Program-made: the position numbers | Source: Oculatellaceae cyanobacterium bins.114 | GTDB lineage: Bacteria > Cyanobacteriota > Cyanobacteriia > Elainellales > Elainellaceae | Length of the DNA stretch: 37,618 bases | Reading direction: 5' to 3' | Assembly (NCBI GenBank): GCA_033764315.1 | Contig: JANRJA010000237.1 | Location: 1-37,618 of the forward strand | Shown: positions 12,001 through 15,000 of the stretch, piece by piece | Numbering within the stretch: the stretch's first letter is position 1 | How the letters are laid out: every line of letters begins with the position of its first letter

Positions 12001-15000
12001 GAGCTTTTATAACACAAATACATTTTTAGTACAATAGTACTTAAGAAATTAATGATTGTAAGACCAAATCTTAAATTTTTATAAAATTGAAGAAAACTGA
12101 AGATTGAGATCCAAATTGAGATCCAACCTATCTTCGATATTCACCTAAACCTTGTAAGTCTTGTAGGAAAAGGGATACAGAAATAGGAGCAGCTGACTTG
12201 TAATCAGCAGGTCGCAAGTTCGAACCTTGTCACCAGCTTCTTGTTTTTAAGCATCGTGCTTTATTGCCGAGGGTTATAGCCCTTGGCAATTCTAGTTTTT
12301 GGGCAAGATTTAAAATTTACTTGGGTATTTGTAGGAACTGATCAGATTAATGGTGGTCGCGATCGCCTGAACATTTCTCCCATAAAAGTAAATTTTCTTG
12401 CCTCTCGTCTAGATGCGCTCTGAATTGTGCCGAATCCTATGCCGCTAAATACCATGCCAAAGTCTCTAGTTGACTAGAGAGCTAGGTGAGCTATATGCAG
12501 GGGGGAGAACAACATGAATCTTAACGCTTAAGAGAAAAAGAAATGGTAGTCTAAGGATTGCAAATACAGTGAATTCGGTTCTAATGGGGGTCAGCCATTA
12601 GAAGAAATGGGGAAAATTTGGTGTAAGCCCAATGCTGTCCCGCAACTGTGATGAGTCTGTGTGACTCTTAGCCAGGATGCCCACCGAAATCTCTACGGCA
12701 TATCAAGCAATCTGCGAGGTACAGAGCATGGTTAGTGGGTCTTTAATTTGGAAACGGACACAACAAGTTACGCTGTCTCTGCCAATGCAAGCTAGTTTGC
12801 TCACTGGCTTGTGCATGTTGAGCCTCTGGACTTTTTACTTCTCGACTTACCCCCCTGCACACGACGCAGTTCACACGACTCGTCACAACACGTTGGCTGT
12901 AGCGTGTCACTAAGTCACTGTAGAAGAGCGATCAGAGTAAGTTTTTGTGAAATTAACTAAATACGTTGGTCTTTTTCTGGTAGCGAGTGTTGCTAGTTTA
13001 TCGGTTTGGCTATGGAACTCACTGCCCGCCGCATCTCAAGCCACAGTGCAGTTGCAGACCAATCCACCCATTGATCAGGTGATTCCGGCGACAGAGCCTG
13101 TGCAATTAACCTTGCAAGCGATTGATAGCCATCAACAGCCCCTAGCCGATGCCAACTTTCAAGTGCAGTTGTTGACTCCTGCCAAAACTCCCTGGTTTAC
13201 GTCAGACTTTCCAATTGTGGAGGGAACCACGTTACTGGAGATAAATGCGATCGCCCCTTCAGGATCATTCCAGTTTGAGCAAACACTGCCCATTCGAGGC
13301 ACCTATCACCTAGAGGTGAATGTCTCGCCTCAAACACCTGGCAGTTTTGAGCCGTTTGATCAGGTGATCTCGTTTTCTGTGCCAGAAAATCCAGTGAAGT
13401 ATCGCAACGTCGCCATTTTAGCCGTGATTTTGCTGTTAGCAGGCGCAGGCAGTGGTTGGGTGTTAGGTGCTGATCAAATCCTTGAAGAGGGCGAGATTGC
13501 CCCCAGACCCGTGAGGATGTTGCTGAGTGCTGCGATCGTGCTAGCGATCGCTGTCTTGTTGGTGATCAACATTAGTTCTGAGATCACTGAGGGTCATGGC
13601 AGCCATAGTCATGAACATGAGCAGGCAATTACTTCCTCTGCTCCTGCCACACAAACCTCTCAAGACATTCAAGTGACGCTTTCTGGAGACACGCTAGCAA
13701 CGGTGGGGCAAACGGCAACCCAGACGGTGCAAATTGTCGATGCAACCACTCAAAAAGCGGTGCCAGACGTTGTAGTCAATGTGCAAGTCAACTCTCTAGA
13801 GCATAACGAGCGCATCTTTAGCCTTGAGGGATTGCCTAACACATCTGGAGAACTCATATGGCAACAGCAATTTTTTGATGGTGCTCCTCATCAGGTGATA
13901 GCCACGATCGCACCGACTGGTAGCAGTTCACGCCAATTTTTACCGATTCAAGTGTCTCATGAAGTCAGTGTTGAGGCGATCGCTCCCCCCTTATATATCC
14001 GTTTTATTACACTGATTTATTTCACGGCTATCTTTGTGGTGAGTTTAGGGATTGGTTTCATCATTCAACGAAAAACAGGTCACTCTAAGTGGCGTGTTGG
14101 TGATCGAGTTGGGTAAGGGCGATCGCCACGATCAACATCACCACGATCAACAATGTAATGGCAAAGACTCTGGCAATGGCTCTGGCTCCGTAGCCAACTT
14201 TCTCAGATCAGGTGATTTGAGCATCCCTTGCCTTAATTGGGCATTAGCAGCCGAGCTGATCGCCAAAAAGTTGCCTGCCGAACCCGCTCCGATCATGGCT
14301 AAAAAATATCCATGATCATCTGCCTCTATTACCGTCCATTGGGAGCGTAAAAATTTAAACGGCTGTAACCCAAAAACAAACCAGGACTGTCTTCACCAAC
14401 AGGATAGGCCGTAACCCCCAAAGAGTAGATCCCATCTTGGGATGGATTGCGCTCAGGTTTGAGATAGAGTGTAACTGTTTGTCCGGGTTGTACTGGTTGC
14501 TCCAAAACGACCATCACTTCCCCTGGTTCTGGCTCCGTTCCACCCAGATTCATCTGAGAAATCTCGGTTCTAGGATTCATTGCAAAAATGCGAGTTTCGT
14601 TAGGTTGAAAGGCGATCGCTTCTTGGTCTGCTCGTTGCGTAATTCTAATGGCTTGCAAGGGTGCTCCTGCATCTTCAGGAACAGAAATCACCAATCGATA
14701 GGTATCACCCGATTGATTAACTTGAGCGGAGTTAGACACGACCCGAACAACACGGGGAGCACGATCAAACACTTGTTGTCCATTACTTAGTTGAGCTGCG
14801 ATCGCAGGAAAAGATAGCAGTAAAAACGAGCCTGAAATGAGAGTTTTGAGTAACAGATGAGAGAGATTAGAAAATTGAGTCATTATTGATTTCAGTTGAA
14901 AATGCATCATTTTTGATTTCTCCTGGAGAGAGTGAATTGTGTTTGAAAGAAAAATGGGCAGAGGCTAATCACCTATTGAGAGAGCAAAAAAATTGCAACC

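Follow-up and report, generated by a model that had tools for sequence, protein, structure and literature searches.

Background

The route by which cobalt enters the cobalamin pathway is poorly known. For some twenty years CbtA-CbtB has stood as a predicted cobalt transporter, on grounds of comparative genomics and of indirect phenotypes. Cyanobacteria rank among the major producers of pseudocobalamin, and their cobalt uptake therefore bears on the supply of B12 in waters and soils. In the riboswitch regulon table of Sun 2013, cbtB has 12 entries, every one of them cbtBA. In Methylococcus, CRISPRi of cbtB/cbtA gave better growth at 1 µM CoCl2 (PMC13108547). CbtA-CbtB is not listed in the accessible parts of a review of cobalt importers (PMC7689651), which do describe HupE as a six-helix permease that has been shown to supply cobalt for B12 in Synechocystis PCC 6803.

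Here we describe a locus in a 37,618-nucleotide stretch of DNA (the window) from Oculatellaceae cyanobacterium bins.114, in which a cobalamin riboswitch precedes a gene related to cbtB and a second gene encoding a 389-aa membrane protein of an unnamed family (Table 1). A literature search, which lay apart from the tables of Rodionov 2003 (JBC), returned no description of CbtB paired with this family.

Table 1. Features of the cbtB locus and their coordinates in the window
Feature	Position	Strand	Basis
Cobalamin riboswitch aptamer (RF00174)	12559..12702	+	58.9 bits vs gathering score 31.5, E 2.8e-12, full model 1-189
Putative expression-platform element ATCTGCGAGGTACAGA	12710..12725	+	Conserved; holds Shine-Dalgarno GAGG 12716-12719, 8 nt 5' of ATG
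cbtB, 61 aa	12728..12913	+	PF09489 27.5 bits vs cut-off 27; one transmembrane helix
389-aa candidate CbtB partner, unnamed family	12947..14116	+	ORF; under every Pfam/NCBIfam cut-off
Predicted ectodomain 1 (aa 30-148), macroglobulin/Ig-like beta-sandwich	13034..13390	+	N-half model, fold search, conservation
Predicted transmembrane hairpin (helices aa 149-174 and 187-219), loop GEIAPRPVR	13391..13603	+	AlphaFold2 model, alignment
His-rich stretch HGSHSHEH (aa 217-224), after helix 3	13595..13618	+	Alignment columns 258-310
Predicted ectodomain 2 (aa 231-345), beta-sandwich	13637..13981	+	AlphaFold2 model, fold search, conservation
Predicted C-terminal transmembrane helix (aa 349-385)	13991..14101	+	AlphaFold2 model, alignment; basic tail after

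A cbtB gene downstream of a cobalamin riboswitch in a genome with no CbtA match

The cobalamin riboswitch noted in a preliminary description of this DNA was recovered at the same place in a search of the whole genome, which is present in 251 contigs. The cbtB start codon lies 25 nt beyond the end of the aptamer on the same strand. In most of 37 riboswitch leaders a TCTGCGAGG core, or a variant differing by one letter, is located 0-10 nt 5' of the start, and no terminator-like hairpin was found between the aptamer and the cbtB start. Judging from these leader sequences, the riboswitch would control translation: adenosylcobalamin bound to the aptamer would lead to sequestration of the 16-nt element that carries the ribosome-binding site, lowering translation of cbtB and probably affecting as well the large gene, which begins 33 nt past the cbtB stop codon. 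With B12 scarce, both proteins would be made. The genome has other riboswitch places before HupE_UreJ (45.4 bits), before CbiX (31.0 bits, slightly below the gathering score) and on another contig (C134, 59.5 bits), where the riboswitch heads a string of genes ending in DUF1636 and CobW. These are the genes HupE, CbiX and CobW that had been given earlier as the rest of the B12 regulon.

The small ORF spans positions 12677-12913 and encodes 78 aa from its first ATG, but the start kept in its relatives gives a protein of 61 aa. This conserved start settles the doubt that had been attached to the CbtB assignment, because the PF09489 score of 26.7 bits for the longer form rises above the cut-off in the shorter one (Table 1). 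PF09489 also matches 35 of 35 relatives of the small protein (E<=0.01, best 2.8e-9). For comparison, the reference CbtB and CbtA were those of an Azotobacter plasmid, where the genes are arranged cobN-cobW / cbtB-cbtA-cobM; hhalign matched the family with this CbtB at a probability of 95% (E 3.8e-8) over 49 columns, including the H..H..RH....CH tail. The C-terminal tail of the small protein reads H-x3-H-x2-RH-x6-CH, with H45, H49, R52, H53, C60 and H61 invariant, and is predicted by the positive-inside rule to be on the periplasmic side. The narrow NCBIfam model TIGR02459 (CbtB, a hypothetical equivalog) scores 14.7 bits against its cut-off of 64.4. By these profile matches, the small protein is a member of the Pfam CbtB family that falls outside TIGR02459. 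Genome-wide it is the sole CbtB place; a second, weak match on another contig (C102, E 6.7e-4, interrupted by one stop) was discarded as a low-complexity intergenic gap.

The reported lack of CbtA was confirmed, with no match to PF09490 at E<=1 in this genome, which is 90.73% complete. PF09490 did not exceed its cut-off in any of 401 cyanobacterial genomes or in any of five non-cyanobacterial genomes that carry the gene pair, and the search for CbtA in the phylum of one genome (G405) gave 0 of 151. The large protein itself was considered as a CbtA and rejected: it has no PF09490 match at E<=1, and hhalign of its family alignment against the single Azotobacter CbtA sequence gave a probability of 0.08% (E 0.62).

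Architecture of the large protein

The 389-aa protein is without a Pfam or NCBIfam family, as had been described; its top match, to YtkA (PF13115), scores 18.3 bits where the cut-off is 25.9 (E 0.0038). It has 499 relatives at E<=1e-3 with the query counted (498 were reported earlier). The proposed architecture of four helices and two beta-sandwich ectodomains was reproduced in an AlphaFold2 model (pLDDT 84.0, compared with 85.1 previously; pTM 0.74), which places helices at aa 4-25, 149-174, 187-219 and 349-385 and beta domains at aa 33-145 and 234-343. The N-terminal half modelled alone reaches a pLDDT of 92.3, and values fall below 50 at aa 215-230, the His-rich region. In the topology suggested by this model, both beta-sandwich domains and the His-rich loop would be periplasmic, anchored by three transmembrane helices together with a signal-like N-terminal helix. 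The membrane part consists of three or four helices with few polar residues, and therefore seems poorly suited to forming a pore of its own.

Conservation is concentrated in a few motifs. Ectodomain 1 has D87-F-P-x-V-E92-G, R117-G-x-Y120 and E147 conserved universally across phyla; G166 and G170 of the transmembrane hairpin are invariant, as is P347-P348 just before the C-terminal helix. Ectodomain 2 conserves E285 and F309-x-D311-G, with H315 conserved in cyanobacteria. The His-rich loop differs in length from one relative to the next, the longest forms having some 40 residues of H/D/G repeats.

Both ectodomains resemble common beta-sandwich folds. By VIA, ectodomain 1 (aa 28-148) gave Z scores of up to 10.5, and ectodomain 2 matched macroglobulin domains with a Z score of 8.1. 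PmoB consists of a sandwich, two helices and a sandwich, in that order, and PmoD ends in a transmembrane helix. The best Foldseek match of the N-terminal half was the soluble domain of PmoD (6cpd_B; E 1.5e-5, TM 0.41/0.55), and the whole protein matched PmoB/AmoB chains at E ~1e-5 with a TM of 0.16; by VIA, however, PmoD (Z 8.3) fell behind macroglobulin and Ig domains (10.5), with CrdA at 9.3. No particular metal-protein fold is singled out by these searches, as CrdA, HftA, Tp34 and PmoD are inconspicuous in a flat list of generic Ig/macroglobulin sandwiches. A sequence search of solved structures found no match below E 0.04, and the ESM Atlas returned hypothetical cyanobacterial clusters only, with leads to YtkA, FixH and HMBD at TM <0.5.

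Linkage of the two genes within and beyond the cyanobacteria

The 5 of 5 loci in which a CbtB-like ORF had been seen upstream of the large gene have become 78 of 80 cyanobacterial loci, adjacent and on the same strand; one of the two exceptions is without upstream DNA and the other is rearranged. Among 401 sampled cyanobacterial genomes, strong matches to CbtB are present in 30 and to the large protein in 29 (the latter reproducing the earlier count), and the two genes are side by side whenever both occur. In the one genome that has CbtB without the large protein, the large gene survives as a 57-aa remnant flanked by cbtB and DUF1636-cobW.

The large protein had been taken for a member of a cyanobacterial family, a view that has to be widened, since loci of other phyla were found with degenerate DNA patterns. 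CbtB adjoins the large protein in 25 of these 26 loci, whose carriers are named in their records as Chloroflexota, Bacillota, Oligoflexus, Verrucomicrobiales/Opitutales/Lentisphaerales, Binatia, Deltaproteobacteria, Thermodesulfobacteriota and Leptospiraceae. Outside cyanobacteria, 11 loci encode the large protein in fused form and 13 as separate N- and C-half genes, the systems of Lihuaxuella and Thermincola being of the split kind, and in two Thermoactinomycetaceae cbtB is the last gene of the module. No natural fusion of CbtB to the large protein was found among 276 proteins.

Riboswitches, previously counted upstream in 13 of 34 loci, are now found in 37 of 80 cyanobacterial loci: 36 of the 42 that are not named Nostocales, versus one of the 38 that are. 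Leptolyngbya boryana is among the strains with the riboswitch. The doubt raised by loci without a riboswitch is resolved by this distribution, nearly all of them being from Nostocales. Outside the cyanobacteria a cobalamin riboswitch precedes the module in six of 24 loci, with scores of 119.5 bits in Thermincola, 107.9 in Lihuaxuella, 105.6 and 103.7 in two Oligoflexus, 103.4 in Marinithermofilum and 63.7 in one uncultured organism; the other 18 have none at the gathering score.

Genomic context and possible functions of the module

Several neighbours of the module belong to cobalamin synthesis. Outside the cyanobacteria, a ChlI-type chelatase ATPase adjoins it in 11 of 25 loci, with CbiA/CobB nearby in three, CobS in one, a tetrapyrrole methylase in one, and CbiX, BtuR and CobQ together in one; the alpha subunit of nitrile hydratase is near it in one. 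In cyanobacteria, CobW is immediately 3' of the pair in six loci, and CbiM-PDGLE in 10 and CbiQ in 8 were also counted in favour of cobalt uptake. The earlier proposal that the large family takes the place of CbtA as the partner of CbtB in uptake of cobalt or corrinoid was supported by every comparative test run, in linkage within cyanobacteria and beyond as well as in co-occurrence (29 of 30 genomes); it also fits the absence of CbtA (0/401 and 0/5), the riboswitches of 104-120 bits in Bacillota and Oligoflexus, and the ChlI, CbiA, CobS, CbiX, BtuR and CobW neighbours. The module quite probably serves cobalt acquisition in some way, and the chances that the pair itself is a cobalt uptake system appear about even. 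On this context, cobalt is favoured over corrinoid as the cargo. In the arrangement that we envisage, a two-gene operon for cobalt acquisition would be shut off by vitamin B12, and CbtB and the large protein, presumably in physical contact, would stand in for CbtA-CbtB. Co(II) would be captured outside the cytoplasmic membrane by the carboxylates of the conserved residues D87, E92, E147, E285 and D311 together with the His/Cys ligands of CbtB, and then passed inward for cobalamin synthesis. The variable His-rich loop and the acidic residues conserved across phyla were counted in favour of cobalt uptake.

The module could instead be an accessory device that collects periplasmic cobalt for another protein acting as the permease (HupE, CbiMQO or Nramp), much as CbiN and NikK/NikL assist ECF nickel/cobalt transporters, which we consider possible though less than likely. 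Large periplasmic domains combined with few membrane helices would suit such a device, and candidate permeases are at hand: of the 29 genomes with the module 23 encode HupE, which is found in 108 of the 401 sampled; a HupE-like ORF of 147 aa directly follows the pair in one genome (G023); CbiM-PDGLE and CbiQ are found 3' of the pair in 10 and 8 cyanobacterial loci, respectively, mostly Nostocales-named and on the strand of the module save for one locus each; and Nramp is upstream and divergent in 13 loci. However, no permease gene adjoins the module in most riboswitch-bearing loci or in cob clusters outside the cyanobacteria, the partner permease would need to change between lineages, and CbtA-CbtB too stands alone behind riboswitches (Sun 2013). 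Counted against the pair as the uptake system itself, the frequency of HupE in module-bearing genomes, and its control by a riboswitch here, argue that the module is not a simple filler of a HupE gap. Also weighed against that reading were the few helices of the large protein, the TIGR02459 score, the generic fold matches, and the lack of a riboswitch in 18 of 24 non-cyanobacterial loci and in 37 of the 38 named Nostocales. A role with a metal other than cobalt (copper, nickel, manganese or iron), or in periplasmic sequestration against metal excess, with the B12 link secondary, would be suggested by a different set of neighbours: divergent multicopper oxidase genes in 26 loci overall, ferritin-like genes in 13, HMA P-type ATPases in 11, and Nramp. 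In Nostocales these genes and the RppA/RppB two-component system are among the neighbours of the pair, a context that points to metal homeostasis in general and was counted against cobalt uptake. Nostoc PCC 7120 has the pair, as proteins WP_010993931.1 and WP_010993932.1, on its metal-homeostasis plasmid pCC7120beta, next to rppA/rppB; counting back from sigB3 (all7608), its old locus tags are probably asr7603/alr7604, and the papers examined in a literature search do not mention them. The cupredoxin and HMA P-type ATPase genes 3' of the pair in the window, copper-related by their look, were likewise counted against cobalt uptake, and the resemblance in fold to PmoD and CrdA, both copper proteins, and the matches to YtkA, all weak, point the same way. 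We nevertheless regard another metal as improbable, since an OFF switch responding to B12 suits cobalt supply rather than detoxification, riboswitches have been recruited in cyanobacteria, Bacillota and Oligoflexus, in several phyla the module is embedded among genes for a chelatase and cob genes, CbtB elsewhere accompanies cob genes, and the fold matches are part of a flat list of Ig-like domains.

The remaining possibility, that B12 or cobinamide rather than cobalt ion is bound or imported, seems very improbable. Two surface-exposed beta-sandwiches could accept a large ligand, and cobalamin riboswitches often govern corrinoid uptake genes such as btuB (Sun 2013). A partner such as CbtB with a short His/Cys tail, and His-rich loops in the large protein, would be suited to a metal ion instead; ChlI, CobW and CbiX, which adjoin the module, act in the cobalt insertion of de novo synthesis; and no Btu-type genes were found among the Pfam-named neighbours scanned (21 of 25 recurrent clusters, 63 of 86 flanking ORFs). 

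CbtB is, to go by these genomes, the constant part of the system, because a second and unrelated partner exists. That partner family, which spans cyanobacteria, Chloroflexota, Bacillota and Verrucomicrobiota, merits a name that could be given to hundreds of hypothetical proteins, and offers tractable material in Nostoc PCC 7120, a genetic model, in its natural fused and split forms, and in conserved acidic residues that can be mutated.

Comparison with known systems

The YtkA-like domain (PF13115) has weak sub-threshold matches in the window protein and in distant relatives; two relatives are labelled YtkA-like in UniRef and one has a precomputed PF13115 match. The cut-off is never reached, however, and the domain says nothing of the membrane part or of CbtB. 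HupE/UreJ (PF04955) resembles the pair in being controlled by riboswitches, here and in other cyanobacteria, but it has no sequence relation to the pair and the two occur together in most module-bearing genomes. The N-terminal half of the large protein, consisting of a signal, a sandwich and one helix, has the PmoD soluble domain as its top Foldseek match, but the TM values for PmoD and PmoB are low, identity is 10-14%, and macroglobulin and Ig domains match equally well or better by VIA. A bolder interpretation, which seems rather doubtful, is that the large protein represents a structural class of its own among metal-uptake proteins, perhaps distant kin of PmoD/PmoB, in which two periplasmic beta-sandwich domains that bind metal sit, fused or split, on a minimal anchor of three helices. 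Together with the single-helix CbtB it would import cobalt unaided, and would have taken over from CbtA in cyanobacteria and in seven or more further lineages.

The closest counterpart is CbtA-CbtB (PF09490 and PF09489). The small subunit here is a true CbtB homologue; both systems are two-gene units, often located after a cobalamin riboswitch and near cobW, cobN, chlI or cob genes; and both have His-rich sequence in the large subunit. In contrast, the large subunit here is unrelated to CbtA by PF09490 and by hhalign: CbtA, at some 227 aa, is compact and polytopic, whereas the family described here combines four helices with two beta-sandwich ectodomains and is encoded by fused or split genes.

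The putative cbtB operon of the window

In the window, a cobalamin riboswitch is followed on the same strand by a 61-codon ORF and a 389-codon ORF, and the locus can be read from its sequence as a putative B12-repressed cbtB operon, the second gene of which, from a widespread unnamed family, occupies the place of cbtA. The preliminary description of a riboswitch, a CbtB-like ORF and an unnamed 389-aa protein without CbtA was confirmed: the aptamer matches RF00174, the small ORF matches the Pfam CbtB family PF09489 (27.5 bits; cut-off 27), and no match to CbtA (PF09490) was found in the genome, which is 90.73% complete.

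Features of the window locus and of the AlphaFold2 model of the large protein
Feature	Position	Strand	Remarks
Cobalamin riboswitch aptamer	12559-12702	+	RF00174, 58.9 bits; gathering score 31.5
Conserved element ATCTGCGAGGTACAGA	12710-12725		Between aptamer and cbtB start; GAGG 8 nt before ATG
cbtB ORF, 61 codons	12728-12913	+	ATG start 25 nt after aptamer end
Large-protein ORF, 389 codons	12947-14116	+	GTG start 33 nt after cbtB end
DUF2808	14329-14910	-	Downstream of pair
Cupredoxin-like protein	15702-16235	-	Downstream of pair
HMA P-type ATPase	16315-18591	-	Downstream of pair
Helix	aa 4-25		Large protein, model
Beta domain 1	aa 33-145		Large protein, model
Helices	aa 149-174 and 187-219		Large protein, model
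Disordered His-rich stretch	aa 215-230		Large protein, model
Beta domain 2	aa 234-343		Large protein, model
Helix	aa 349-385		Large protein, model

An alternative reading of cbtB from an ATG at 12677 (78 aa; 26.7 bits, slightly below the PF09489 cut-off) would overlap the aptamer; comparison of relatives places the conserved start at 12728. PF09489 is matched by each of the 35 aligned small-protein relatives with E<=0.01 (lowest E 2.8e-9), and their alignment matches a CbtB encoded on a plasmid of Azotobacter chroococcum (hhalign probability 95%, E 3.8e-8, 49 columns), the gene of which lies directly 5' of a 'CbtA family protein' gene and is flanked by cobN-cobW and cobM. The small protein consists of a single hydrophobic helix and a tail H-x3-H-x2-RH-x6-CH, with L16, S17, P19, Q21, W34, F38, H45, H49, R52, H53, C60 and H61 invariant. 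It misses the cut-off of the narrow NCBIfam CbtB model TIGR02459 (14.7 bits vs 64.4). On the PF09489 and hhalign comparisons, the small protein of the window is a CbtB.

No terminator-like hairpin was found between the aptamer and the cbtB start. Riboswitch control would appear to act at the ribosome-binding site, because most of the 37 riboswitch-bearing leaders compared carry the TCTGCGAGG core, exact or with one letter changed, 0-10 nt upstream of the start. At one related locus (L020, 3244-3703), the riboswitch and cbtB are separated by an additional small ORF, which follows the same platform element and encodes an HHGGSH-containing membrane protein. Upstream in the window, a CRISPR array of 20 repeats matching RF01343 (CRISPR-DR33; 39-41 bits, period ~70 nt) occupies 9531-11133 and ends ~1.4 kb before the riboswitch. 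A second riboswitch of this genome (contig C134, 23500-30700, loci L210 and L002; 59.5 bits) shares the conserved platform, which here reads ...ICEVQI, and precedes a 53-aa ORF that ends in CH and has no match to the CbtB profile. Behind this ORF come, in order, genes for a fatty-acid-desaturase-like protein and a methyltransferase, one unknown gene, DUF1636 and CobW; the string could be what is left of a riboswitch-cbtB-partner-DUF1636-cobW arrangement.

The pair and its riboswitch in cyanobacteria

A total of 499 relatives of the large protein were found at E<=1e-3, nearly all without a name. One genome per species was scanned, giving 166 encoding stretches; in the best 80 of these, all cyanobacterial by record title, a small-protein HMM located the small protein immediately 5' of the large gene, in the same orientation, in 78. 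The exceptions are L063, with just 58 bases upstream, and L032, with the small protein downstream on the other strand. Of 401 sampled cyanobacterial genomes, 30 gave a strong match to the small protein (E<1e-26) and 29 to the large protein (E<1e-129), the two always adjacent; none had CbtA above cut-off. Only one of the 401 genomes, G212, has cbtB without an intact partner. In its locus (L087, contig C6, 3751-6040), the riboswitch and cbtB are followed by what remains of the large gene (57 aa from the N terminus) and then by DUF1636 and cobW.

In 37 of the best 80 loci (by batch, 13/17, 2/18, 5/18, 11/17 and 6/10), a cobalamin-clan riboswitch at or above the Rfam gathering score precedes the gene on its own strand. 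It was found in one (L036) of 38 loci with genus names that we take to be those of heterocyst-forming Nostocales, versus 36 of the 42 others, where the six loci without it include L063 and L081 (no upstream DNA) and L032 (rearranged). Thus, the absence of a riboswitch from 21 of 34 loci, which the preliminary description had listed against its own proposal, reflects one clade. The 280 nt upstream of cbtB in 16 aligned Nostocales-named loci contain no riboswitch; in its place most of them share a conserved promoter-like TTGTCA-17-TATATC and a ~65-nt leader with a small TTGC...GCAA repeat, and the Anabaena-group rows deviate in the promoter part.

The family in other phyla

Searching 1.84 billion representatives with a profile yielded 387 large-protein relatives at E<=1e-3, including ~350-aa proteins and many half-size proteins of ~180 aa (signal, one sandwich, one helix). 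The motif (S)TDFPxVEGT, used as a DNA pattern in two scans, located non-cyanobacterial loci in groups named from record titles: Chloroflexota, Caldilineaceae, Lihuaxuella, Marinithermofilum, Thermincola, Oligoflexus, Verrucomicrobiales, Opitutales, Lentisphaerales, Binatia, Deltaproteobacteria, Thermodesulfobacteriota and Leptospiraceae. One candidate, L157, was discarded as a spurious pattern match. Of 26 distinct loci outside the cyanobacteria, all but L229 have a CbtB-like ORF adjoining the large gene in the same orientation (25 loci). Together with the 78 of 80 cyanobacterial loci, this adjacency supports the earlier proposal that the unnamed family partners CbtB in cobalt or corrinoid uptake in the place of CbtA. 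Three of four non-cyanobacterial small ORFs tested were above the Pfam CbtB cut-off (36.7, 28.5 and 28.3 bits; the fourth, 24.2), and CbtA was found in none of five non-cyanobacterial genomes carrying the module. A cobalamin riboswitch precedes the module in 6 of 24 such loci, L226 and L235 being left out of the count (119.5, 107.9, 105.6, 103.7, 103.4 and 63.7 bits).

Outside the cyanobacteria, the large protein is encoded by a single gene in 11 loci and by N-half and C-half genes in 13 (L235 is cut), and in two Thermoactinomycetaceae cbtB comes after the halves. In metagenome bins, frameshifts could account for some of the splits; against this reading, two of the split loci come from isolates, and the protein library contains many half-size proteins. 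A 2.7-kb contig titled Tatlockia sp. MAG (L149) carries a cyanobacteria-like riboswitch, cbtB and the partner (E 1.5e-87); the title looks wrong, because the genome groups with the cyanobacterial phylum.

Structure of the large protein

No Pfam or NCBIfam family matched the large protein above cut-off; its best scores were YtkA (18.3 bits vs 25.9) and chance-level matches. Identity with CbtA was rejected, PF09490 being absent even at E<=1 and hhalign of the family alignment against Azotobacter CbtA giving a probability of 0.08%. In the AlphaFold2 model (28 sequences; pLDDT 84.0, pTM 0.74; N-terminal half modelled separately, pLDDT 92.3), the first helix is probably a signal peptide, and the two beta domains, together with the His-rich loop, would face the periplasm, since the C-terminal tail is basic. 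Residues kept in both cyanobacterial and other-phyla rows are D87, F88, P89, V91, E92, G93, R117, G118, Y120, E147, G166, G170, E285, F309, D311, G312, P347 and P348.

A sequence search of solved structures found none for any large-protein relative. Fold searches returned macroglobulin/Ig-type sandwiches (Z up to 10.5 for residues 28-148 and 8.1 for residues 240-343), with the PmoD soluble domain as top Foldseek match of the N-half (6cpd_B, E 1.5e-5, TM 0.41/0.55) and PmoB/AmoB chains in the whole-protein list (TM 0.16). The scores of these matches are not distinct from those of unrelated sandwiches.

Gene context and function

For 25 non-cyanobacterial loci, 63 of 86 flanking ORFs were scanned, 23 short or overlapping ORFs having been set aside by hand. 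A ChlI-type Mg_chelatase AAA+ gene adjoins the module in 11 of these loci, CbiA/CobB in three, and CobS and a tetrapyrrole methylase in one each; CbiX, BtuR and CobQ are neighbours in the Leptospiraceae locus, and those in Deltaproteobacteria and Binatia (glyoxalase, Amdase, luciferase-like genes) are uninformative. Among cyanobacteria, CobW is directly 3' of the module in six loci, and CbiM-PDGLE (10 loci) and CbiQ (8 loci) are near it, mostly in Nostocales-named loci. They are directly 3' on the same strand in L048, L070, L075 and L077; in four other loci, one to three unnamed ORFs separate the module from these genes, which again lie downstream in the same orientation. This context points to cobalt for B12, and the module probably serves cobalt acquisition for cobalamin synthesis; that it handles corrinoids is unlikely, and the least probable of the readings weighed here. 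A nitrile hydratase alpha subunit gene adjoins the module in a Thermodesulfobacteriota locus (L242, 3818-4741), and some nitrile hydratases require cobalt.

Other neighbours in cyanobacteria are multicopper oxidase (26 loci, divergently upstream in 24), ferritin-like genes (13), HMA P-type ATPases (11) and Nramp (divergently upstream in 13). The minus-strand genes downstream of the pair in the window look like a copper-type cluster, and genes for DUF2808 are again found close to the module in seven related loci and on plasmid pCC7120beta, where Nramp, rppB/rppA and a sigma factor are also neighbours. The Nostocales context and the plasmid locus fit general metal homeostasis. A module for another metal or for resistance is unlikely. 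HupE/UreJ is present in 108 of 401 sampled genomes versus 23 of the 29 with the module, a figure inflated by kinship, and HupE is under its own riboswitch in the window's genome; thus, the module is no stand-in for a missing HupE. At L244 (G023:C1, 1392-3346, minus strand), a 147-aa HupE/UreJ-like ORF, preceded by a stop and covering profile positions 45-163, lies directly 3' of the pair on the same strand.

Of the two forms that cobalt acquisition could take, uptake by the pair itself is about as likely as not overall, and we consider it possible, at clearly lower probability, that the pair is a capture device serving another permease. Given its three or four helices, the large protein may form a path only together with CbtB and as oligomers, or its role may be limited to feeding another permease.

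Comparison with known cobalt systems

No account of the CbtB-large-protein pairing was found in the literature on CbtB, cobalt and cobalamin riboswitches; the tables and supplements of Rodionov 2003 could bear on priority. Cobalt importers named in excerpts of a review (PMC7689651) are CbtJKL, CbiMNQO, NiCoT, HupE and CorA, and in the excerpted Table 2 of Zhang 2009 (PMC2667541) the 'other predicted Co transporter' is absent in 16 cyanobacteria. In the 11 cyanobacterial rows shown of Table S1 of Sun 2013 (PMC3766115), the cobalamin column holds hupE, cbiX, metE, btuB or cob genes or is empty, as for Microcystis and Trichodesmium. According to excerpts of other reports, Methylococcus grew better at 1 uM cobalt under CRISPRi of cbtB and cbtA (PMC13108547), coenzyme B12 represses cbtBA 43-fold (review, PMC8123684), and an ordinary cbtA-cbtB pair occurs in Leptospira licerasiae (PMC3493377). 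All 12 cbtB entries of Sun 2013 are cbtBA, in proteobacteria.
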